A DNA stretch of 64,000 bases from Escherichia phage RB49. Below, piece after piece: positions 18,568 to 43,800 of this stretch; within the stretch, counting starts at the first letter, position 1, and every line of letters begins with the position of its first letter. The notes beneath the pieces were generated by a model. The model saw only the letters and a program-made list of their open reading frames with translations, made no database searches and was not told where the DNA came from. Location: sequence record NC_005066.1, one strand, 5' to 3'. The position numbers and the translations under genes are program-made.

Positions 18568-18650
18568 TGTTTGATTCTCCTAAGTGGTATCTCGTCTTGA
18601 TGGGTGTATTATGCTATAGTCGTGATCTGGTGTCAACAACTTTTTTAAAT
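18568..18650 (-). promoter_or_regulatory. PeSL-like early promoter cassette
   Basis: Shares 31-nt gattctcctaagtggtatctcgtcttgatgg with cassette at 17079; tgtcaacaactttttt. Confidence 0.65.
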
Positions 18651-18658
18651 TTTTGGAA

Positions 18659-18689
18659 ATAAAAAAGCCGACACTAAGGTCGGCACATT
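18659..18689 (-). terminator. intrinsic terminator
   Basis: GCCGAC-actaag-GTCGGC hairpin; T6 on minus strand. Confidence 0.7.
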
Positions 18690-19077: not shown

Positions 19078-19150
19078 CTTTATTTCCTCAATCTCGTTTC
19101 GATGGGTGTATTATGCTATAGGCTAGACCAGGTTGTCAACAACTTTTTTA
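19078..19150 (-). promoter_or_regulatory. PeSL-like early promoter cassette
   Basis: tcgtttcgatgggtgtattatgctat...ttgtcaacaactttttta. Confidence 0.65.
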
Positions 19151-19162
19151 ATTTTTTGGGAA

Positions 19163-19190
19163 ATAAAAAAGCCGACGCTAAGGTCGGCTA
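19163..19190 (-). terminator. intrinsic terminator
   Basis: GCCGACgctaagGTCGGC hairpin with T7 on minus strand. Confidence 0.7.
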
Positions 19191-19196
19191 ATAAAA

Positions 19197-19505
19197 TCAT
19201 TTGGACAAATAATCATTCTGTGCAATCCGGTCGGCGTATGCTGGTGTTATGTCAATCGCCAGCACTTTAACGCGTGCTTTCTTGCGACCTGGGTTTTCTC
19301 GTAACCAGTGCTCATGACCGTGAACATTTTTATACTTTGATGCTTCTTCAAATGTACGGATCGGACCTGGGTAATCAGCGTAAAGGATCTCTAGGTCTTC
19401 GGTGATGTAAAAATATACATCGTAATTACTGTTCTCTAGTTTAAGCAGAGAGTTGCGAAATTGTGGTAAATTCTCGCGGGTAAATTCAACTACAAGATTT
19501 TTCAT
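19197..19505 (-). CDS. H-x-H-W family small protein (member 1)
   Basis: HGHEHW ... VLAIDI motif shared with five neighbouring ORFs. Confidence 0.6.
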   Translation of the reverse strand: MKNLVVEFTRENLPQFRNSLLKLENSNYDVYFYITEDLEILYADYPGPIRTFEEASKYKNVHGHEHWLRENPGRKKARVKVLAIDITPAYADRIAQNDYLSK

Positions 19506-34304: not shown

Positions 34305-34471
34305 TATCCGACAACCTCAAAACATTTATCATCAGGAAGAATCGCCCATTCTACACCGTATTCATCCTCGACGTAGTAGCAAGTCCCATCATGTCGAGCA
34401 TCATATTCATCACCAACAACAAAGCTATCAGCTAGTTCAAAATCTACAGCAACACATTTTAATTTGGTCAT
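34304..34471 (-). CDS. small acidic protein (55 aa)
   Basis: MTKLKCVAVDFELADSF...; track ORF is extended into the PeSL. Confidence 0.5.
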   Translation of the reverse strand: MTKLKCVAVDFELADSFVVGDEYDARHDGTCYYVEDEYGVEWAILPDDKCFEVVG

Positions 34472-34539
34472 AATAAAATCCTCACTTGTTTTTGATGGTT
34501 GTATTATAGCGGGGATTTCTCCCCGCGTCAACACTTATT
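34472..34539 (-). promoter_or_regulatory. PeSL-like early promoter cassette (abuts nrdA stop)
   Basis: aatcctcac...ttgtattat aGCGGGGAtttcTCCCCGC gtcaacactt. Confidence 0.6.
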
Positions 34540-36783
34540 TTACAGCTTGCAAGATGAGCACTCGCTAGCGTCTTCCGTACCATCAGCACCATCACGCACG
34601 TTAGCGTAATACAGGGTTTTCAGACCGTAATATTGAGCAAACAGCATATCATCTAACACATCAGCAATATCGACTTTACCAGTCTTATAAGTGCTTGGAT
34701 CGTATGATGTATTGGAACTAATCGCCTGATCCACAAACTTCTGCATGATCGCTGCCAGTGTCAGATAAGGCTTGTTACCTTTCTTGATCAGTGTCCAAAG
34801 CAGGTCAATAACATCAGCATTATTCTCTACGTTCGGAATAACCTGATTAAATTGCCCTTCTTTCGATCCTTTAACCGATACAATCCCGCGAGGCGGTTCA
34901 ATACCATTTGTGCTGTTAGACACCTGAGAGGACGACTCACAAGGCATCAGCGCCGACAGTGTACTGTTACGAATGCCATATTTTTTCAGGTCTTTGCGCA
35001 GTTCTTCCCAATCCATCTCATACACCGGATCAACCAGTTCATCTACTGTCTTTTTGTACCAGTCGATAGGCAGTTCACCGCGTCCATAACGTGTTTCGTG
35101 CATCAGTTCGCAAGCACCCTTCTCTTTAGCCAGTTGCACACTAGCCTTAATCAGAGCATATTGCAAGCGTTCAAACGTTTTATGCGTAAACTCGTTAGCG
35201 TCTTCATATGTGAAGAAATTATCCGCTAGATATGACGCAAAGTTAGTCACACCAACACCCAGAGAGCGACGTTTTTTGGCTGTTAGAGCTTGTTCTACAG
35301 GATAATCCTGATAATCTAACAGGTTGTCCAGTGCACGCACCATAACCATAGCAATGCGTTCTACTTCTTCCATATTTTCGATATCGAAATTACCTAAAAC
35401 ATATGCTGCCAAAGTACATAGGCTAATTTCTGAATCATCACGACCCATCGGTTTAGTAGGCAGTGCAATTTCACAACACAGGTTAGATTGTTTAATCGGT
35501 GCTACATTACGAATAAACGCCCCGTGATTGTTCATGTTGTCTGTGAACGTTGGGTAGATTCGACCAGTGTTAAAACGTTCAATTGCCACCGCTAAAAACA
35601 GGTCTTCGGCTTTAACACGAGTTTTACGAACACTCGGATCTTTTTCCAGTTTTTCGTAAAGCTGGCGGAAACCTTCCTCATCTCGGAAGTATAGATCCCA
35701 CAACAAGCCACCCGCAACATCTGGACTAAACAGAGTAATGTAATCCCGTTTAAGGAATCGCTCTACCATCAGGTTATTAATCTGTACGCCGTAATCAAGA
35801 TGACGAATGCGGTTATCTTCCACCCCCTTATTGTTCTTTAACACAATCAGACTTTCAAACTCTAAATGCCACATTGGGTAATAGAGAGTCGCCGCCCCGC
35901 CACGAATACCGCCTTGTGAGCATGACTTAACGGCAGTCTGAAAATGTTTCCAGAATGGGATAACGCCAGTATGACGAACTTCACCATGCCCGATCTTAGA
36001 TCCTTCCGCGCGAATCATACCAGCGTTGATACCGATGCCAGCACGCTTGCTAATATACTTGATGATTGCATTTGCTGTTTCGTTGATGCCCTGCAATGAG
36101 TCATCACTTTCAATCACCACGCACGAACTAAATTGTCGTGTTGGAGTACGCACACCCGCCATAATCGGAGTAGGCAGAGAGATTTGCTTATTCGCAACAG
36201 CATTATAAAAATCAATCACATGTTCAAGTCTATTTTCTGTCTCTTCTTGATGTAAGCACATACCGATCAGCATATACGCAAATTGCGGTGTTTCGATGAT
36301 TTTCTTAGTGCTGCGATCCTGAACAAGATATTTCTCTTTTAACTGCATCGCACCAGCATAGGTCATTTTAAAATCAAGTTTATGGTCGATGAATTTCTCC
36401 AGATATTCCACTTCTTCACGGGAATACTTTTGCAGAATTTCGCGATCATATTTTCCGGTTGCAATATTACGCTCAATATGGCTGTAAAAATCAATCGGTT
36501 GGAATTGACCGTATACTGATTTGCGAAGCGCGAACATTGCAAGGTTACTTGCTACATATTGATAATCGGGCGTTTCTACCGTGATGTTATCTGCGGCGAC
36601 CTTAATCAATACTTTCTGGATATCATTGGTAGACATACCTTCTGTCAGAAGTGGTTCAACCATATCAAACAATTCATATGGATCAACGTTATGACCTTCG
36701 GCTGCCGCTTCCAGAATTTTCATTACTTTTTCTTTTTCAAACGGAACAGTCAGACCGGAAGACTTAACAACATTTTTAATCAT
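34540..36783 (-). CDS. nrdA: ribonucleotide reductase class Ia large subunit
   Basis: 747 aa; NLCCEIALP active-site motif; C-terminal Cys pair (CSSCKL). Confidence 0.9.
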   Translation of the reverse strand: MIKNVVKSSGLTVPFEKEKVMKILEAAAEGHNVDPYELFDMVEPLLTEGMSTNDIQKVLIKVAADNITVETPDYQYVASNLAMFALRKSVYGQFQPIDFYSHIERNIATGKYDREILQKYSREEVEYLEKFIDHKLDFKMTYAGAMQLKEKYLVQDRSTKKIIETPQFAYMLIGMCLHQEETENRLEHVIDFYNAVANKQISLPTPIMAGVRTPTRQFSSCVVIESDDSLQGINETANAIIKYISKRAGIGINAGMIRAEGSKIGHGEVRHTGVIPFWKHFQTAVKSCSQGGIRGGAATLYYPMWHLEFESLIVLKNNKGVEDNRIRHLDYGVQINNLMVERFLKRDYITLFSPDVAGGLLWDLYFRDEEGFRQLYEKLEKDPSVRKTRVKAEDLFLAVAIERFNTGRIYPTFTDNMNNHGAFIRNVAPIKQSNLCCEIALPTKPMGRDDSEISLCTLAAYVLGNFDIENMEEVERIAMVMVRALDNLLDYQDYPVEQALTAKKRRSLGVGVTNFASYLADNFFTYEDANEFTHKTFERLQYALIKASVQLAKEKGACELMHETRYGRGELPIDWYKKTVDELVDPVYEMDWEELRKDLKKYGIRNSTLSALMPCESSSQVSNSTNGIEPPRGIVSVKGSKEGQFNQVIPNVENNADVIDLLWTLIKKGNKPYLTLAAIMQKFVDQAISSNTSYDPSTYKTGKVDIADVLDDMLFAQYYGLKTLYYANVRDGADGTEDASECSSCKL

Positions 36784-36851: not shown

Positions 36852-38084
36852 TTATACTGCCATTTGAGCGGTGATTGCTGGATGGCTTTGATAGTTGTGA
36901 ATTTTAAAATCTTTCGGAGTCTTTGTCAATACCTCATCTAAAGATTTAAATTCCGGCAACTCAATTGTTGGTTTATCAAACGGAACACGGCTTAACTGTT
37001 CCATAACTTGATCAAAATGGTTTTTGTAAATGTGAGTATCTCCACCAGAGAAAATCAGTTCTCCTACCTCAAGATCACACATTTTCGCTATGATGTGAGT
37101 TAACAGCGCATAGCTGGCGACGTTAAAGGGCAAGCCCAAAAAGCTGTCTACGCTTCGCTGAAACCACATACAAGACAGTTTACCTTCATTGACGTAGAAT
37201 TGTACGAACGGATGACATACACCCAACACAGCATTATGTGTTCCTTGTACGTTCCATGAGTCAATAATGATCCGGCGATCCGTTGGATTGTTTTTAATTT
37301 GTTCAATCACGTTTTGTAACTGGTCTTCCCAAATCTTCGGGCGATAGACATATTCTTCATCGTCTTTAGTGCTCGATGTGTCTACGTCCATACTAGCAAA
37401 GATCGTGGTATCTGGTGCTAAAATATCCCCACCCAGATAATCACTATCAAGCAGATAACCGAAATAACCATCATCTACCCATTCCTGGAATCCCCACAAG
37501 CAATATGCATCATTAACAAAATTAGATTGAGTCTTCCAGTGGTCTGCTACTAAGAATAGATTATACTCAGAATCAAACTCTTCATAACGCATACCACGCC
37601 AGATAGCACATAAACGGTCTTCTGTTTCATTGGTTGGCGTAAAGTCTTCTACCCACGGGTGTTTAAATGTATGTGTATATTTGCTCTTAACGCGCTTAAT
37701 TTTGATTTCACCGTGTGGATGAATCGGTTTGCGTCGCCATGCCATACCATACATATTACCGACATTATAACCATTGAATCGCAAAGGATTCTTTTCTTTC
37801 ATATCAAGACAGTTGCCGCGCCAAATATCAAAGGCTTCCTCGTCAAACTTACCGCGTGTAATTTCCTGTAAGCGACGGCGGTCAAGTGATCCCTCCATAA
37901 ACCATAGCAACTCGCCAATTACAGAGGCTGTAGCCATCTTTTTAGTGGTCAGTAAGGGGAAACCCTTGCTTAAATCAATTCGCATCTCTGCGCCGAATTT
38001 AGAGAGCGTACCTACCCCCGTGCGGTCTTCACGAGGCCAACCATTATCAAGAACATCACGCAATAGTTTCAAATATTCTTTCAT
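36852..38084 (-). CDS. td: thymidylate synthase with ~125-aa internal insertion
   Basis: Collinear with E. coli ThyA at both ends (RTGVGTLS..., DRRIIIDSWN, CHPFVQFYV..KLSC.W.QRS.D.FLGLPFN.ASYALLTH, GDTHIY, AITAQMAV); extra segment residues ~125-252. Confidence 0.9.
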   Translation of the reverse strand: MKEYLKLLRDVLDNGWPREDRTGVGTLSKFGAEMRIDLSKGFPLLTTKKMATASVIGELLWFMEGSLDRRRLQEITRGKFDEEAFDIWRGNCLDMKEKNPLRFNGYNVGNMYGMAWRRKPIHPHGEIKIKRVKSKYTHTFKHPWVEDFTPTNETEDRLCAIWRGMRYEEFDSEYNLFLVADHWKTQSNFVNDAYCLWGFQEWVDDGYFGYLLDSDYLGGDILAPDTTIFASMDVDTSSTKDDEEYVYRPKIWEDQLQNVIEQIKNNPTDRRIIIDSWNVQGTHNAVLGVCHPFVQFYVNEGKLSCMWFQRSVDSFLGLPFNVASYALLTHIIAKMCDLEVGELIFSGGDTHIYKNHFDQVMEQLSRVPFDKPTIELPEFKSLDEVLTKTPKDFKIHNYQSHPAITAQMAV

Positions 38085-38418: not shown

Positions 38419-38988
38419 TTACGCCTTCTTACGTTCTAAGATTTGTTCGCTGATCAGGTAATCATCAAGGAAGTAATTATGTTCTTCTTTTGTTGCAAAG
38501 TCAAAATATAATTCCTGAATCATTTCCTTAGAAATACCAACATCATATTCAAATGGATCGTTGATTCCTGAACGTTGAACATACGTTAACACAATACGGT
38601 CCGCAAAGTCAACTGCTTTTTCAATCAGGGAAGGTCCACCAATAACACTTACCAAACCTTGCGTTTTCTCCAGGACTTTTAACAGATCCTTTAATTCAAT
38701 TCCAGTATACACATTAGGCTGGTCGCCGTTTTTGGCTTTCGGTGTCGGCTTGCTGGCATCGGTACTAATAACCACATTAAGACGACCTTCCAGTGCTTTA
38801 GGCAGACTTTCAAAGGTATTACGTCCCATTACAACCGCCGCAAGTTCAACATCTCCCATAGTGCGCATTTTAAAGTTTTCCATGTCCTTTTTGATTGGAC
38901 GACCCCACGGTAAACCGCCTTTAAAACCAAAAGCCCAATTTTCATCTGACATTTTAGTGTCACCAATCGCAAATACACATTGAATCAT
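38419..38988 (-). CDS. frd: dihydrofolate reductase
   Basis: GGLPWG motif, size 189 aa, adjacent to td. Confidence 0.85.
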   Translation of the reverse strand: MIQCVFAIGDTKMSDENWAFGFKGGLPWGRPIKKDMENFKMRTMGDVELAAVVMGRNTFESLPKALEGRLNVVISTDASKPTPKAKNGDQPNVYTGIELKDLLKVLEKTQGLVSVIGGPSLIEKAVDFADRIVLTYVQRSGINDPFEYDVGISKEMIQELYFDFATKEEHNYFLDDYLISEQILERKKA

Positions 38989-39003: not shown

Positions 39004-39333
39004 TCAAATCAGTTTGAAATAGTTTTCGTTTACATTTTCTTCTGTGATTGCGGTCTTAAATTCTTGACCGTTATCCGGTGTGATGAAATAACGGTCAGAA
39101 TAATCACGAAAACGTTTTAAGTGAGATACCCCAACATTAACACCATTTTCCCAGAAACGAAAGGTAATCATTTTTGGTTCATATCGATAGTCGCTGGTTA
39201 ACACAGTACCATCACCGCGACGGGCTTCATAAACCGTAATACATTCACGATTAGCGGCTTTTAGGCATTCTTCAATAGTGCCACATGAGATAATACTTAC
39301 TTTTTCATCTACGATTTGTTCTACAGTCCACAT
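39004..39333 (-). CDS. hypothetical protein (109 aa)
   Basis: Track ORF preceded by PeSL. Confidence 0.5.
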   Translation of the reverse strand: MWTVEQIVDEKVSIISCGTIEECLKAANRECITVYEARRGDGTVLTSDYRYEPKMITFRFWENGVNVGVSHLKRFRDYSDRYFITPDNGQEFKTAITEENVNENYFKLI

Positions 39334-39400
39334 AATATAGTCCTCACTTTGATTCGATGTTTGTATTATACACTGTTGCGTTACGCTGTCAACTCTTTTT
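39334..39400 (-). promoter_or_regulatory. PeSL-like early promoter cassette
   Basis: agtcctcac...cgatgtttgtattatacac...gctgtcaactcttttt. Confidence 0.6.
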
Positions 39401-40838
39401 CAAAAGATTTTACGATATACATGATAGTGCTCAATTCAGACGGCGCTACTGTCTCTGTCCAACCATCCGGCATATCTTCTTTCGAGATATAGGAAGTTTT
39501 ACCTTTCATCGCTTCCTTGATCTTGTTCTCTAAGTCTAAGATCTTTTGACCGTCTTGTAAAGTCAGTTCATAAAAGATCTCGTGGTCGAATTTAGAAACG
39601 TTAGATTGCTGTTTCATTCTTTCTTGTGTTGTTTTATTTGTTATACCAAATTTAATTCCCACCAAGAAAGAATCTTTAATTATTTTCTGTATATACAATA
39701 CGCCTTTTTTGGATGGTCTAAATCCATAATGTGCACAATTCGGACATCCTTTACCAGATAAAAAATTTTGTGCGGATGTTGTATATTCTCCACAATTAGA
39801 ACACAACAATTTTAGATTTTTTACTTTTCCTCCTTTATAACCAGAATCAAAGCATACAAATGTTATATTATCACGGTCTTTAGATTCTTTAATAATATCG
39901 AGCATGGCTTCTTCTTCGGTTTTTAATCCAACCCCAGCACATTTAGCACACCCGTTTCTTCCATTTTTAATAGAATTTAATGATGTTGTATACTCACCGT
40001 GTCGGTGACAACTAACTACCAAATTTTTTGTGTTTATATTTTTATAGCCATCAATAAAACCAACAACAGTTAAACCGAGTTGATCTGCACACTCTTTTGC
40101 AAAATTAATAGCGTCTTCTTCTGAAAATGTTCTCTTAGACACTGCTTTATTTTTACTACATATAGGACAGCCACGACCCAACCTACAGAAATTGTAATAA
40201 CTGGTTTTAAATTCACCATGAATAAAACATTCAACAATTAAATTTCTCTCATTGTTTTTTACATACCCACCTTCAAATCCGACAACTACACAATTTCCTA
40301 GTATATTTGCACGTTCGACCGCTTCTAGTGTAACAATGTTTATGTCATATTTTGGTGTTCCTTTGCATTTAGGACAACCACGCCCTTGCATATATTTGTT
40401 ATGCGAAGTTTTATATTCTCCATGATGTTTACAGTTCACTATAAGATTTCTGTATGCGCTTGTTTTATATCCACCGTCGAATCCTATAATATCTTCGGTT
40501 TCTCTTTTCTGAGACTCCATCAAAACATCGGCAAGTGCTTTATTAGTTGAGTTTCTTCTGATTTCAGCAACTCTATTGGTTGCACATTTTTTACAGCCAT
40601 AGTTTTTTTCGTAATTTCCGATATTTGACGTGAAGATGTTTTTACATTTGCATAATATACATGCTTTTGTTTTAACAGAATTCCATTCACCAATAAAGCC
40701 AAGATATATATGTTTTTTGGATAATGATATTTTAATAAATCTTTTCTCATATTCCATAGGAGAAATAGCACTAGATGTTTTTCCAGTCCATTGAATGTCT
40801 TTAGCATATCTAAGAATTGTCATTGATTTAATTTTCAT
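39381..40838 (-). CDS. large protein with five tandem Zn-ribbon modules and C-terminal GIY-YIG/T5orf172-like segment
   Basis: Repeats C-x2-[HC]GE[YF]xTS...G.GCPxC x5, each followed by GF.GGY; C-terminal GVLYIQKII...GIKFGITNKTTQER. Confidence 0.7.
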   Translation of the reverse strand: MKIKSMTILRYAKDIQWTGKTSSAISPMEYEKRFIKISLSKKHIYLGFIGEWNSVKTKACILCKCKNIFTSNIGNYEKNYGCKKCATNRVAEIRRNSTNKALADVLMESQKRETEDIIGFDGGYKTSAYRNLIVNCKHHGEYKTSHNKYMQGRGCPKCKGTPKYDINIVTLEAVERANILGNCVVVGFEGGYVKNNERNLIVECFIHGEFKTSYYNFCRLGRGCPICSKNKAVSKRTFSEEDAINFAKECADQLGLTVVGFIDGYKNINTKNLVVSCHRHGEYTTSLNSIKNGRNGCAKCAGVGLKTEEEAMLDIIKESKDRDNITFVCFDSGYKGGKVKNLKLLCSNCGEYTTSAQNFLSGKGCPNCAHYGFRPSKKGVLYIQKIIKDSFLVGIKFGITNKTTQERMKQQSNVSKFDHEIFYELTLQDGQKILDLENKIKEAMKGKTSYISKEDMPDGWTETVAPSELSTIMYIVKSFEKELTA

Positions 40839-40905
40839 ATTTTATCCTCCGTTGTTTCGATGTTTGTATTATACATTACCACATAGTCATGTCAACACCT
40901 TTTTC
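40839..40905 (-). promoter_or_regulatory. PeSL-like early promoter cassette
   Basis: tatcctccgttgtttcgatgtttgtattatac...catgtcaacaccttttt. Confidence 0.6.
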
Positions 40906-40919
40906 ATAAATTTTTAGGC

Positions 40920-40948
40920 AATAAAAAAGCCTCCCCGAAGGGAGGCTG
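40920..40948 (-). terminator. intrinsic terminator after gene 32
   Basis: GCCTCCC-cgaa-GGGAGGC hairpin with T6 on minus strand. Confidence 0.7.
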
Positions 40949-40957
40949 TAAAATTCA

Positions 40958-41926
40958 TTACATCGCTAACAGAGAGTCCAGGTCATCCAGATCAGAAGCG
41001 GAGGAAGTACCGCCACCCAGATCCAGTGATGCCATCAGGTCATCAGCAGAAGAATCTGCCGCCGTGCTAGCTGCGTTAATACCAACTACAGTGCTAGCTG
41101 CGGCAATACCAGAATCGAATGCATTTAAAGCAGCGTCAAAATCGTCAAGCTGGCTGTTAATCGCTGCCGCAGCACTGGAAGCCGCAGCACCAGCTACCAT
41201 AGAAACGCCCATAGTTTTCTTAAATTTGGTTTCCAGTTCATCGAACGGTTTAAACTGGCTAGGCGCTACAATCTCACTCAGATCAACCATGTTTTCCATC
41301 AGATATTTCTGATATGCTTCGTCTTCAATTTTCGGAAGCTGTGATTGCTGCATGAAACGAGAATCATCATAGTTCTGGTGTTTATCAACCTTCTTAGCTT
41401 TCAGGAGGAAGTTAGCACCGGAGAACACACAAGTTACATCTACCGGAACTTCGCCCATGTCGGTATTCACGTTCACCATTGCAACGATCTTATCATAAAT
41501 TTTCTGACCGAAGCGGAATTTGAATACCTTACCTTCATTTTCTGGTGCTTGAGGATCTTTCAGTACCAGAATATTTGCGTAGTAAGAGGCTTTACGCTTA
41601 ATCAGTTGCCATTCTGTTTTATCGGTATTGTACAGATCTTTTTCGTTAATATATTTGCACACAGGGCAAGAATCAAAATCACCGTGGGTGCTGGAGCAGT
41701 TTTCCCAATACCATTTACCATTAACTTTGAAGGAATGGTTTACCAGTTTCACAATCGGCAGACCGTCTTCTGTCTTAGACGGCAGGAAGCGAATCAGGGC
41801 TTCACCGTTACCTGCTGCATCAGTCTTAATCTTCCACTCTTTCGGATCTTCTTTGGAGAAACCGTTGCCACCTTTCAGTGCGGCCAGTTGAGCTTGCAGT
41901 TTGGAAGAATCTTGGCGTTTAAACAT
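40958..41926 (-). CDS. 32: gp32 single-stranded DNA-binding protein
   Basis: Collinear with T4 gp32 (MFKR..., IRFLPSK, zinc-site [14 protein letters not shown]), acidic C-terminus. Confidence 0.95.
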
Positions 41927-42000
41927 ATTCACTATTCCTTCTTTTGATTAATTTACTAGACTATTATACAGATTTAAATTTACTTGTCAACTATTTGTTT
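41927..42000 (-). promoter_or_regulatory. promoter region upstream of gene 32 with TTGACA-type -35
   Basis: tacttgtcaactatttg and tattatac motifs between 59 and 32. Confidence 0.45.
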
Positions 42001-42667
42001 CGACTTTTAATTGAGATATTTCTTTACACTCTTTAACTACTTTAACAAATAATGCTCTTGCTTTTGCGGCGTCAATAACAAGTAGTTTCTTATACGCCTT
42101 CATTTTAACACTATAAGTTTGCCAAATCAAGTCTTTGGCTACCTTGTCGTGTTCGTCGATTATATTTAGAAAGCTATCTAACAACATAAACGACTCAAAC
42201 GATATAATCCGATTTTGCAGTAGTTTAAAGATACCGCTAGTTTCGGTTGCGGGATTGTATGTAATTAGCTCTTTAAGAGTAACCCCGCGTTTCTCGGAGA
42301 AGTATACCAGACTTTTAATGTCATCGTCAAATCGTGTTGCCGCATCAGTGATTTTACCGATGTACTCCATGTAAAACCCGTATGCGTCAACATCGGTGAT
42401 TTCACCTACCCATGCATCGGTATTAGCTACCAGATTGCTTAGGAATAGGAAGTATAATTCTCTTAGATTGTACTTTTCCGCTAATTTTGCGAAATAATAC
42501 TTATCTCTGCGTTTATTGAATGCGGCATCAGACAACCGCATCCTCCAATTGTATTTTACGCAATCATAACGCCCGTTCATATGAGCTTTCATCATGCAAT
42601 ATAACATATACACAGATTTAGCATTAATTCGCATATCTGGATCTGGAGGAAGACGGTTTCTGATCAT
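41987..42667 (-). CDS. 59: gp59 helicase loader
   Basis: Collinear with T4 gp59 (KSVYMLYCMMKAHMNGRYDCVKYNW, ISFESFMLLDSFLNIIDEHD). Confidence 0.93.
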   Translation of the reverse strand: MIRNRLPPDPDMRINAKSVYMLYCMMKAHMNGRYDCVKYNWRMRLSDAAFNKRRDKYYFAKLAEKYNLRELYFLFLSNLVANTDAWVGEITDVDAYGFYMEYIGKITDAATRFDDDIKSLVYFSEKRGVTLKELITYNPATETSGIFKLLQNRIISFESFMLLDSFLNIIDEHDKVAKDLIWQTYSVKMKAYKKLLVIDAAKARALFVKVVKECKEISQLKVETNS

Positions 42668-43203: not shown

Positions 43204-43800
43204 TTAACCCTCTTTAGTCATTAATTGAAAACCACGTTCAGCTTTTGAGATTTCGCTAGGACTTAAATCGTCACCCACATATTCTAGCATCATTTCTCGG
43301 ATAATGTCAAGTGCTTTTTCATCACCTGATTTTAACTCGAACTCAAGTTCATAGTGAGCATCTCCCATTACTTCGCCGACTTTGCAATAATAGAAAGTGT
43401 CTTTGCACATTTCCACTATAGCACCCTCAAGGTCAATTGTCAATGACTTGCGGTATGTCATTACTTGAAGTAAAGGAACGATAAGGTCGGAGTTTACGCC
43501 TAGACTATCAACATAATGATAGAAATCATCCATTGTTGAAAAAGTAATTTCTTCTCGGTTGAAGAGTCCAGATTCACTATCACCTATTTTGACCATGATC
43601 AATGATCTATTAACGTCAAGTCGAGCATAAATTCCTTTTCGACGCAGTGCATGATCTTCGGTATCATAATAAAATTCGTGTTTTAGAGTGTTAGCACGAT
43701 CTACTAGATTGTACCCGTCATACATTGCTACCCACAAATCACAGATTGTTTCGACGCCAATTTGTGAGTGTGCATAGTATTTTAATTCAAGTTCTTTCAT
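43204..43800 (-). CDS. CYTH-like (triphosphate tunnel metalloenzyme) protein
   Basis: N-terminal ELELK (ExExK) motif, C-terminal ELEFELK acidic strand; 198 aa. Confidence 0.5.
   Translation of the reverse strand: MKELELKYYAHSQIGVETICDLWVAMYDGYNLVDRANTLKHEFYYDTEDHALRRKGIYARLDVNRSLIMVKIGDSESGLFNREEITFSTMDDFYHYVDSLGVNSDLIVPLLQVMTYRKSLTIDLEGAIVEMCKDTFYYCKVGEVMGDAHYELEFELKSGDEKALDIIREMMLEYVGDDLSPSEISKAERGFQLMTKEG

Follow-up and report, generated by a model that had tools for sequence, protein, structure and literature searches.

The CapR module was defined by Netter 2021, where it was also noted in the putative T5orf172 homing endonucleases of phage ICP1 (PMC8096241), and zinc fingers of the CapR, DUF723, or DUF4379 type were then reported in 200 of 229 T5orf172 homing endonuclease genes (Barth 2023, PMC10448857). 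These fingers are often multiple 'beads on a string', with six in phage Helene (Barth 2023, Fig. 5-6), and some of the genes pair homologous T5orf172 domains with unrelated DNA-binding regions (PMC10448857). The locus considered here lies in a stretch of 64,000 nucleotides from Escherichia phage RB49 (sequence record NC_005066.1), referred to as the window, in which an open reading frame (ORF) of 485 amino acids (aa) stands between frd and gene 32. It joins five tandem Cys/His modules to a T5orf172-like C-terminus and is a new, divergent allele of the known family. The product is probably an early-expressed, freestanding, site-specific T5orf172 endonuclease whose five zinc modules would read a long target and which would home into relatives that lack the allele.

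Other described systems bear on parts of this gene. The cysteines of CapR are required for DNA binding in vitro (Netter 2021, PMC8096241). Odn of ICP1 is a purified T5orf172 nuclease that becomes inactive in vitro and in vivo when E180 is replaced by alanine (PMC8263062). In T-even phages gene 32 is a proven homing endonuclease target, SegG of T4 cutting gene 32 of T2 and thereby causing marker exclusion (PMC2988022). In RB49 and phi1, ORFs are carried by PeSL cassettes, in which a stem-loop terminator and a consensus early-type promoter precede the ORF; this promoter belongs to every PeSL, and recombination of adjacent PeSLs at points from the -10 box to the ATG excises ORFs and forms mini-circles (Arbiol 2010, PMC2839356).

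A single intact ORF of 485 aa occupies 39381-40838, as the preliminary description of this DNA had stated. It is on the minus strand, with its ATG at 40838 and its TAA at 39381-39383. Across the same interval the plus strand has many stops and no open frame. The gene is divided as follows:

39381..40838, minus strand: putative CapR-array/T5orf172 endonuclease, complete ORF (PHROG 681 at E 4e-99; ratio of nonsynonymous to synonymous substitution rates, dN/dS, 0.14 against the 78%-identical homologue)
40578..40781, minus strand: module R1, degenerate, aa 20-87; likely ligands C63/C65 and C82/C85
40359..40577, minus strand: module R2, aa 88-160; ligands C136, H139, C155, and C158; AlphaFold model pLDDT (the model's confidence score) 85.5
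40152..40358, minus strand: module R3, aa 161-229; ligands C204, H207, C224, and C227; best DUF723 stretch at aa 180-227
39933..40151, minus strand: module R4, aa 230-302; ligands C277, H280, C297, and C300
39729..39932, minus strand: module R5, aa 303-370; ligands C346, C349, C365, and C368; best CapR stretch at aa 318-369
39384..39728, minus strand: T5orf172/MUG113-like domain (GIY-YIG superfamily), aa 371-485
39381..39580, minus strand: constant 3' segment, aa ~420-485, with a nucleotide identity of 93% or more to alleles that differ strongly elsewhere

The N-terminal array contains five C-x2-[C/H]...C-x2-C ligand sets with a start-to-start period of 68-76 aa (pairs 60/63(65)-82/85, 136/139-155/158, 204/207-224/227, 277/280-297/300, and 346/349-365/368) and amounts to four clear modules and one degenerate module, R1. 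When the protein was cut into five units of 68-73 aa and local alignments were scored against shuffles, R2-R5 proved 34-41% identical in pairs, with z-scores of 13-25, which bears out the internal repetition. R1 is 19-24% identical to the other modules (z up to 5.6), and in the closest homologue its C60 is exchanged for Ile while C63, C65, C82, and C85 are retained. Pfam CapR (PF21817) matches the protein in four stretches at E 9e-19, with 67.8 bits against a curated cut-off of 24.2; DUF723 reaches 26.2 bits against 20.9, and DUF4379, a 'probable treble clef', falls slightly under its cut-off at 24.0 bits against 24.5. In an alignment of 71 modules, positions C49, C68, and C71 are invariant.

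The preliminary description had taken these units for zinc ribbons in which a G-F-x-G-G-Y strand follows each knuckle. Their number holds, with the reservation made for R1, while their fold and phase require correction. A single-module AlphaFold model built from the alignment of 71 modules (the pLDDT being that given for R2) runs from a long helix through the G-F-x-G-G-Y strand, a beta-hairpin, and a short helix to a last helix. The first ligand pair sits at the turn of the beta-hairpin, the knuckle, and the last helix begins with the second pair, so that the strand precedes the zinc knuckle of its own module and C-P-x-C comes after. In this model the modules look like treble-clef fingers and not like classical zinc ribbons; a Foldseek search of the PDB with the model gave no significant match. 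The array presumably binds zinc and, through its modules, DNA.

The C-terminal domain shows the motif GVLYIQ...KFGITN...ER...LEN...PDGWTET at aa 379-464, following the T5orf172 pattern of a strand-1 Tyr, K-x-G, Arg, Glu, and G-x-x-E. Across 37 non-redundant C-termini G372, Y382, K396, G398, R407, E437, G459, E462, and T463 are invariant. Taken alone, aa 371-485 match 66 of the 120 homologues listed at a domain E of 1e-7 or less, and the family is where recognized profiles enter: MUG113 matches 21 of the 37 C-termini (best E 2.3e-6) and T5orf172 matches 16 (best 5.7e-6), while GIY-YIG (PF01541) matches two relatives, at 0.007, and is not found in the 485-aa protein. The chain of homology runs through proteins P0030, P0044, and P0035, which the C-terminus matches at 2e-19, 1e-14, and 2e-15, respectively. 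All three exceed curated cut-offs, P0030 for both MUG113 (25.3 bits against 22.3) and T5orf172 (24.2 against 20), P0044 for MUG113 (25.8 against 22.3), and P0035 for T5orf172 (21.7 against 20).

Aligned by hhalign, the family profile meets Odn (Gp88) at E 8.6e-5 and pairs Y382 with Y127, K396 with K138, G398 with G140, R407 with R148, and E437 with E180. The domain was also modelled, as the preliminary description had proposed: the AlphaFold model has a pLDDT of 96.2 and an apparently matching topology, in the order beta-beta-alpha-beta-alpha-alpha. It finds 96 viral models in BFVD at E<1e-3, among them entries named 'GIY-YIG domain-containing', 'Homing endonuclease', and 'Bacteriophage T5 Orf172 DNA-binding domain-containing'. 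A profile made from the C-terminal alignment matched only spurious designed-repeat proteins when run against PDB sequences. Judged by transitive homology, the domain is a member of the T5orf172/MUG113 branch of the GIY-YIG superfamily with its catalytic residues intact, and it is presumably an active endonuclease.

PHROG 681, 'endonuclease', matches aa 108-482, and relatives were found by tblastn in 605 phage records, with hosts that include Escherichia, Vibrio, Klebsiella, Salmonella, and Aeromonas. Within this wide family the allele stands well apart. No protein encoded in 50,697 phage records is more than 45% identical to it. Only two metagenomic proteins come closer, at 100% and 78% identity, and the gene for the latter occupies this slot in a different Krischvirus contig. 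RefSeq labels the Krischvirus orthologues 'endonuclease' (ORF240 of Phi1, for example) and remarks of ICP1 ORF130 that it is 'similar to RB49p240'; in BLASTP of the whole protein, ICP1 ORF121 'endonuclease' is not significant (E 0.29). Since the family and its repeat arrays were described between 2021 and 2023, the architecture is not novel. The zinc array had been called unusual and the gene offered as a possible novel nucleic-acid-targeting protein, but repeated CapR, DUF723, and DUF4379 arrays on T5orf172 genes were already in Barth 2023 (PMC10448857), and RefSeq had its name for the Krischvirus orthologues. The other suggestion, a freestanding endonuclease of the homing type with a zinc-module DNA-binding array, was right in kind, given PHROG 681, the CapR score, the alignment with Odn, and the polymorphism of the locus.

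That polymorphism is pronounced. A megablast search of the window finds the flanks of the ORF 93-97% identical to Krischvirus phages (RB49, Phi1, GEC-3S, and relatives), whereas no record covers the 485-aa ORF itself. The frd-32 interval of T4 holds frd.1-3 only, as had been supposed, and among the Krischvirus relatives the slot is empty, replaced, frameshifted, intact, or doubled, so that the gene is far from conserved at this position in all of them. Intact alleles range from 266 to 542 aa. The states found are:

PHB13: slot empty, with exactly one PeSL
MIZ6: slot filled by an unrelated ORF of 109 aa, with the same promoter repeats on either side
Cognac: 109-aa ORF and endonuclease gene in tandem
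MIZ4: frameshifted gene of the Sf20 type
Sf20: intact allele, 281 aa
kaaroe: intact allele, 414 aa
Phi1: intact allele, 460 aa
Whisky: intact allele, 486 aa
Delraymugoa: intact allele, 542 aa

What is annotated in MIZ4 (locus L008, 1394-2320) as an 'endonuclease' of 182 aa corresponds to the 3' part of the frameshifted gene, which tblastn matches in two frames; this copy is decaying in the same slot. The same cannot be said of the window allele, for which a pseudogene or decaying copy is ruled out by its dN/dS of 0.14 and its intact motifs.

The alleles are mosaics. Compared with Phi1, Delraymugoa, kaaroe, and Cognac, nucleotide identity rises from 63-80% to at least 93% at ~39580 (aa ~420), and even in the closest allele (locus L007) it steps from 86% to 96% at that point; with Whisky, Sf20, and MIZ4 the jump falls at ~39480. 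Such a step within the gene indicates a recombination boundary near 39580. Among 32 cluster representatives with the same last 67 aa, median identity is 97% in these residues, 58% in the first half of the nuclease domain, and 38% in the zinc-finger arrays, where the minimum is 25%. Against the 78%-identical homologue, which keeps every ligand and motif residue except C60, dN/dS is 0.15 in the array and 0.08 in the nuclease domain. The array is therefore functional, as is also argued by the overall ratio. Synonymous divergence from the closest relative amounts to 1.09 for the array, compared with 0.24 for the last 67 codons, which implies that the array has an older or foreign history relative to the backbone. 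The differences between arrays thus point to exchange by recombination and not to fast local evolution.

One allele shows another mode of change. The six modules of the Delraymugoa protein (locus L005, 2582-4210) are almost identical and ~65 aa long (SKEEY..RLKPIF..ENI.FNGFVGEWKG..TKLNL.C.EGHEFTP...), which indicates a recent tandem expansion; the window modules, by comparison, share only the 34-41% given above.

The gene is also set between repeated promoters, and the elements around it are:

40928..40947, minus strand: stem-loop terminator after gene 32, AGCCTCCC-TTCG-GGGAGGCT followed by a T-run; GC-rich, the stem-loop part of the upstream PeSL
40868..40895, minus strand: sigma-70 promoter TTGACA-16-TATAAT, 12/12, for the endonuclease ORF
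40852..40875: left copy of a 24-nt direct repeat (-10 box and 5' untranslated region)
40846-40850: Shine-Dalgarno sequence GGAGG
39365..39392, minus strand: second sigma-70 promoter, 12/12, for the 109-aa ORF and frd, its -35 box overlapping the final Leu-Thr codons
39349..39372: right copy of the 24-nt direct repeat

The two repeat copies are 96% identical and bracket the endonuclease gene. The preliminary description had the gene bounded by PeSL cassettes on both sides, which is accurate upstream, where a full stem-loop and promoter stand directly before the ORF, but only partly so downstream, where the promoter and 24-nt repeat occur without a stem-loop. A downstream promoter embedded in the endonuclease gene is also found in several T4 seg and mob genes (PMC2988022). 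A search of the window for paralogues of the gene found none, only PeSL-like DNA. Further PeSL- or promoter-like copies lie at 18631-18669, 19134-19201, and 34458-34508, one of them a short way past the 3' end of nrdA, and may serve as recombination partners. PeSL recombination could move the gene without homing.

Assembled into a course of events, the preferred reading of a homing endonuclease would run as follows. Host RNA polymerase would transcribe the gene early from its own consensus promoter, and the five independently folded Cys/His modules of the CapR/DUF723 type would line up along DNA and jointly read a long, asymmetric target, near which the C-terminal domain (Y382, K396-x-G398, R407, E437, and G459-x-x-E462) would cut. 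In a mixed infection the cut would most likely fall in a related Krischvirus without this allele, in or beside the region from gene 32 to frd. Repair by recombination, with the carrier genome as template, would then bring in the gene together with flanking markers, amounting to homing with marker exclusion as in the case of T4 SegG. Specificity would be re-assorted by recombination, with the last ~200 nt and the PeSL promoter repeats serving as crossover anchors common to all alleles and the zinc-finger array being swapped as one block.

Several results weigh against this reading. Pfam T5orf172 (PF10544), MUG113 (PF13455), and GIY-YIG do not match the whole protein at E<=1 or aa 371-485 at E<=0.1, and an NCBIfam scan of the protein is equally without a match. 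Foldseek of the domain against solved structures has no significant match (best E 0.2), the GIY-YIG nucleases Slx1 and HIGLE appearing only at E 1.5-6 with TM 0.41-0.56, and the hhalign probability to Odn is just 60%. The preliminary description had named the lack of any significant profile match to a nuclease fold as grounds for giving up the idea; formally this lack applies to the single sequence, but the matches at family level overturn the objection. In the literature, no cleavage site or demonstration of homing was found for CapR-array T5orf172 genes, which Netter 2021, Barth 2021, and Barth 2023 call putative homing endonucleases. The gene carries a consensus early-type promoter, in contrast to the freestanding homing endonuclease genes of T4, which are without early promoters (PMC2988022). 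Identity of the flanks to the window is 95-98% in carriers and non-carriers alike, so that no co-conversion tract is visible, and the single-nucleotide polymorphisms (SNPs) common to the window and L007 as against six other loci number just three, all in gene 32 (41058, 41132, and 41636), which is too few to interpret. Finally, presence and absence of the gene can be explained by PeSL recombination alone and are thus no proof of homing.

Pressed further, this last point would make the gene passive PeSL cargo, an accessory ORF shuffled by homologous recombination at the PeSL and promoter repeats, possibly via mini-circles. The single PeSL left at the empty site of PHB13, the different ORF between the same repeats in MIZ6, the two cassettes in tandem in Cognac, the bracketing 24-nt repeat, and the crossovers from -10 box to ATG shown experimentally in RB49/phi1 (PMC2839356) all agree with it. 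Such shuffling accounts for mobility and not for the function of the protein, however, and is compatible with a homing endonuclease; moreover, the boundaries at ~39580 and ~39480 lie inside the coding sequence and not at the PeSL, and purifying selection shows that the protein is in use, which together leave cargo status an unlikely account of the gene. The early promoter invites another thought, namely a nuclease of competition or defence, domesticated from a homing endonuclease gene like ICP1 Odn, with its array aimed at rival phages, satellites, or host DNA. It would be expressed right after infection and spread by PeSL recombination, and the diversity of its arrays would reflect an arms race over targets. 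This is conceivable, though on balance doubtful. A consensus early promoter is absent from T4 homing endonuclease genes (PMC2988022), the arrays are hypervariable on a constant catalytic end, T5orf172 nucleases have been re-targeted by domain swapping elsewhere (PMC8263062; PMC10448857), and the cassette is PeSL-bounded in a slot able to carry other cargo. Against this, PADLOC reports no match to any defence family, no target can be named, and the frameshifted and deleted copies in close relatives are more readily understood as part of a selfish gene's cycle of decay than as remains of an indispensable weapon. Since every PeSL includes a consensus early-type promoter, the one here can be present without any selection for when the endonuclease gene is expressed (PMC2839356). 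A catalytically idle T5orf172 domain on a DNA-binding regulator, which would repress or tune the PeSL or its own promoter as CapR does the capsid promoter of ICP1, is very improbable. CapR, made of the same module, is a repressor, I-TevI is also an autorepressor (PMC8096241), and the gene is placed among repeated PeSL promoters; yet the catalytic-motif residues are all invariant in the 37 diverse members, purifying selection on the protein is strongest in the nuclease domain (dN/dS 0.08), and CapR is without the nuclease domain that is intact here.

As a putative homing endonuclease gene the ORF is ordinary from the standpoint of annotation, being one more divergent allele in a described phage family. 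Its value is that of a model. At least 32 distinct natural arrays occur on an almost identical catalytic end, accompanied by empty, replaced, and decayed states of the slot, and Krischvirus phages grow on laboratory E. coli, which opens the questions to crosses and in-vitro cleavage. Tractable among these are the reading of DNA by tandem treble-clef-like modules, the re-targeting of a nuclease by array swap, and the respective shares of homing and PeSL-mediated cassette exchange in the mobility of the gene. A more far-reaching proposal, which we regard as improbable, is that the slot constitutes a natural library of re-targetable nucleases for inter-phage interference, in which one catalytic module with its anchors is combined with dozens of exchangeable arrays of 2-6 modules. 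If so, each array would direct early cleavage of a different rival genome, the locus would be an incompatibility system and not a simple selfish homing element, and modules of the CapR type would each read DNA as a separate unit, following a recognition code that could be deciphered.

The genes around the slot, from nrdA to rnh, are all on the minus strand:

34540-36783, minus strand: nrdA
36852-38084, minus strand: td
between td and frd, minus strand: 98-aa ORF
38419-38988, minus strand: frd
39004-39333, minus strand: 109-aa ORF, between the endonuclease gene (upstream) and frd
40958-41932, minus strand: gene 32, upstream of the 485-aa ORF
41987-42667, minus strand: gene 59
past gene 59, minus strand: gene 33, dsbA, an ORF with a CYTH domain, and rnh

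Two distinct ORFs of 109 aa occur in or next to the slot (39004-39333 on the minus strand of the window, and 2590-2919 of locus L002), neither with a Pfam match. In all relatives the first is retained on the downstream side of the slot. The second (MFLNATLSQK...) fills the slot in MIZ6 and adjoins the endonuclease gene in Cognac. On the far side of gene 32, an extra ORF of ~199 aa lies between genes 32 and 59 in MIZ4 (L008, 3356-3594) and Cognac (L010, 4137-4375). The window is without it. In MIZ4 it is annotated 'HNH endonuclease', and it takes the same position as segG, which in T4 is between genes 32 and 59, that is, on the other side of gene 32 from the slot discussed here; in MIZ4 and Cognac, gene 32 is accordingly flanked by endonuclease genes on both sides. 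At the 3' end of gene 32 (41027-41132), substitutions private to the window cluster together with an indel, and the SNPs 41058 and 41132, shared only with L007, lie in this stretch as well; the acidic gp32 tail may simply be variable, or the changes may be linked to target immunity.

The td product of the window is 410 aa long, and its Pfam match is split into two stretches, residues 254-410 corresponding to profile positions 110-266, around an in-frame insertion of ~125 aa that has no Pfam match. The T4 td product has 286 aa. Among the seven related loci with a whole td (L001-L007), five have a coding sequence for 410 aa, and those of Phi1 (L001) and PHB13 (L003) are annotated with 406 aa. 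Beyond gene 59, the 198-aa ORF at 43204-43800 (minus strand) contains a CYTH domain (PF01928, 27.7 bits against a cut-off of 23.2), and its counterpart in PHB13 is annotated 'adenylate cyclase'.

Set beside the described systems, the gene is closest to the CapR-array T5orf172 genes. ICP1 Gp53, Gp121, Gp130, Gp165, and Gp174 and Vibrio phage Helene have the same order, N-terminal Cys/His modules followed by a C-terminal T5orf172 domain. The family and this gene have in common a variable number of repeats, alleles that combine a homologous nuclease with unrelated DNA-binding regions, and a position beside essential genes of replication or nucleotide metabolism. Unlike those genes, the present one resides in a T4-like Krischvirus genome, a group outside the coverage of Barth 2023, is bracketed by PeSL promoter repeats, and has its last ~200 nt fixed across alleles. 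Odn shares the T5orf172 catalytic domain, with Y, K-x-G, R, and E aligned, and a swappable N-terminal DNA-binding domain; its similarity is remote, however, that domain is RepA_N in place of zinc modules, and Odn serves as a weapon against a satellite, its target being known. CapR of the Vibrio cholerae satellite PLE, which represses the capsid operon, consists of the same zinc module (PF21817) and binds DNA in a cysteine-dependent manner, but it has no nuclease domain and works as a repressor.

T4 SegG resembles the gene in being freestanding, in adjoining gene 32 (in T4 on the opposite flank), and in belonging to the GIY-YIG superfamily. Seg and I-TevI carry their catalytic domain at the N-terminus, whereas here it is C-terminal and without a PF01541 match. 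I-TevI has one zinc finger, and the DNA-binding region of Seg and I-TevI is of the NUMOD/helix-turn-helix type, as against the five zinc modules found here. The homing endonuclease genes of T4 differ, further, in never being early-transcribed. The modular beads-on-a-string design is a trait that Seg and I-TevI share with it, and another likeness is the downstream promoter embedded in the endonuclease gene (PMC2988022). To the PeSL cassettes of RB49/phi1 (Arbiol 2010; Comeau 2014) the locus is alike in the stem-loop terminator and consensus early promoter before the ORF, in the repeated promoter after it, and in a slot with empty and alternative-cargo states; it departs from them in its downstream unit, which is without a stem-loop and has its -35 box inside the coding sequence, and in its cargo, a 1.46-kb nuclease gene and not a small ORFan.

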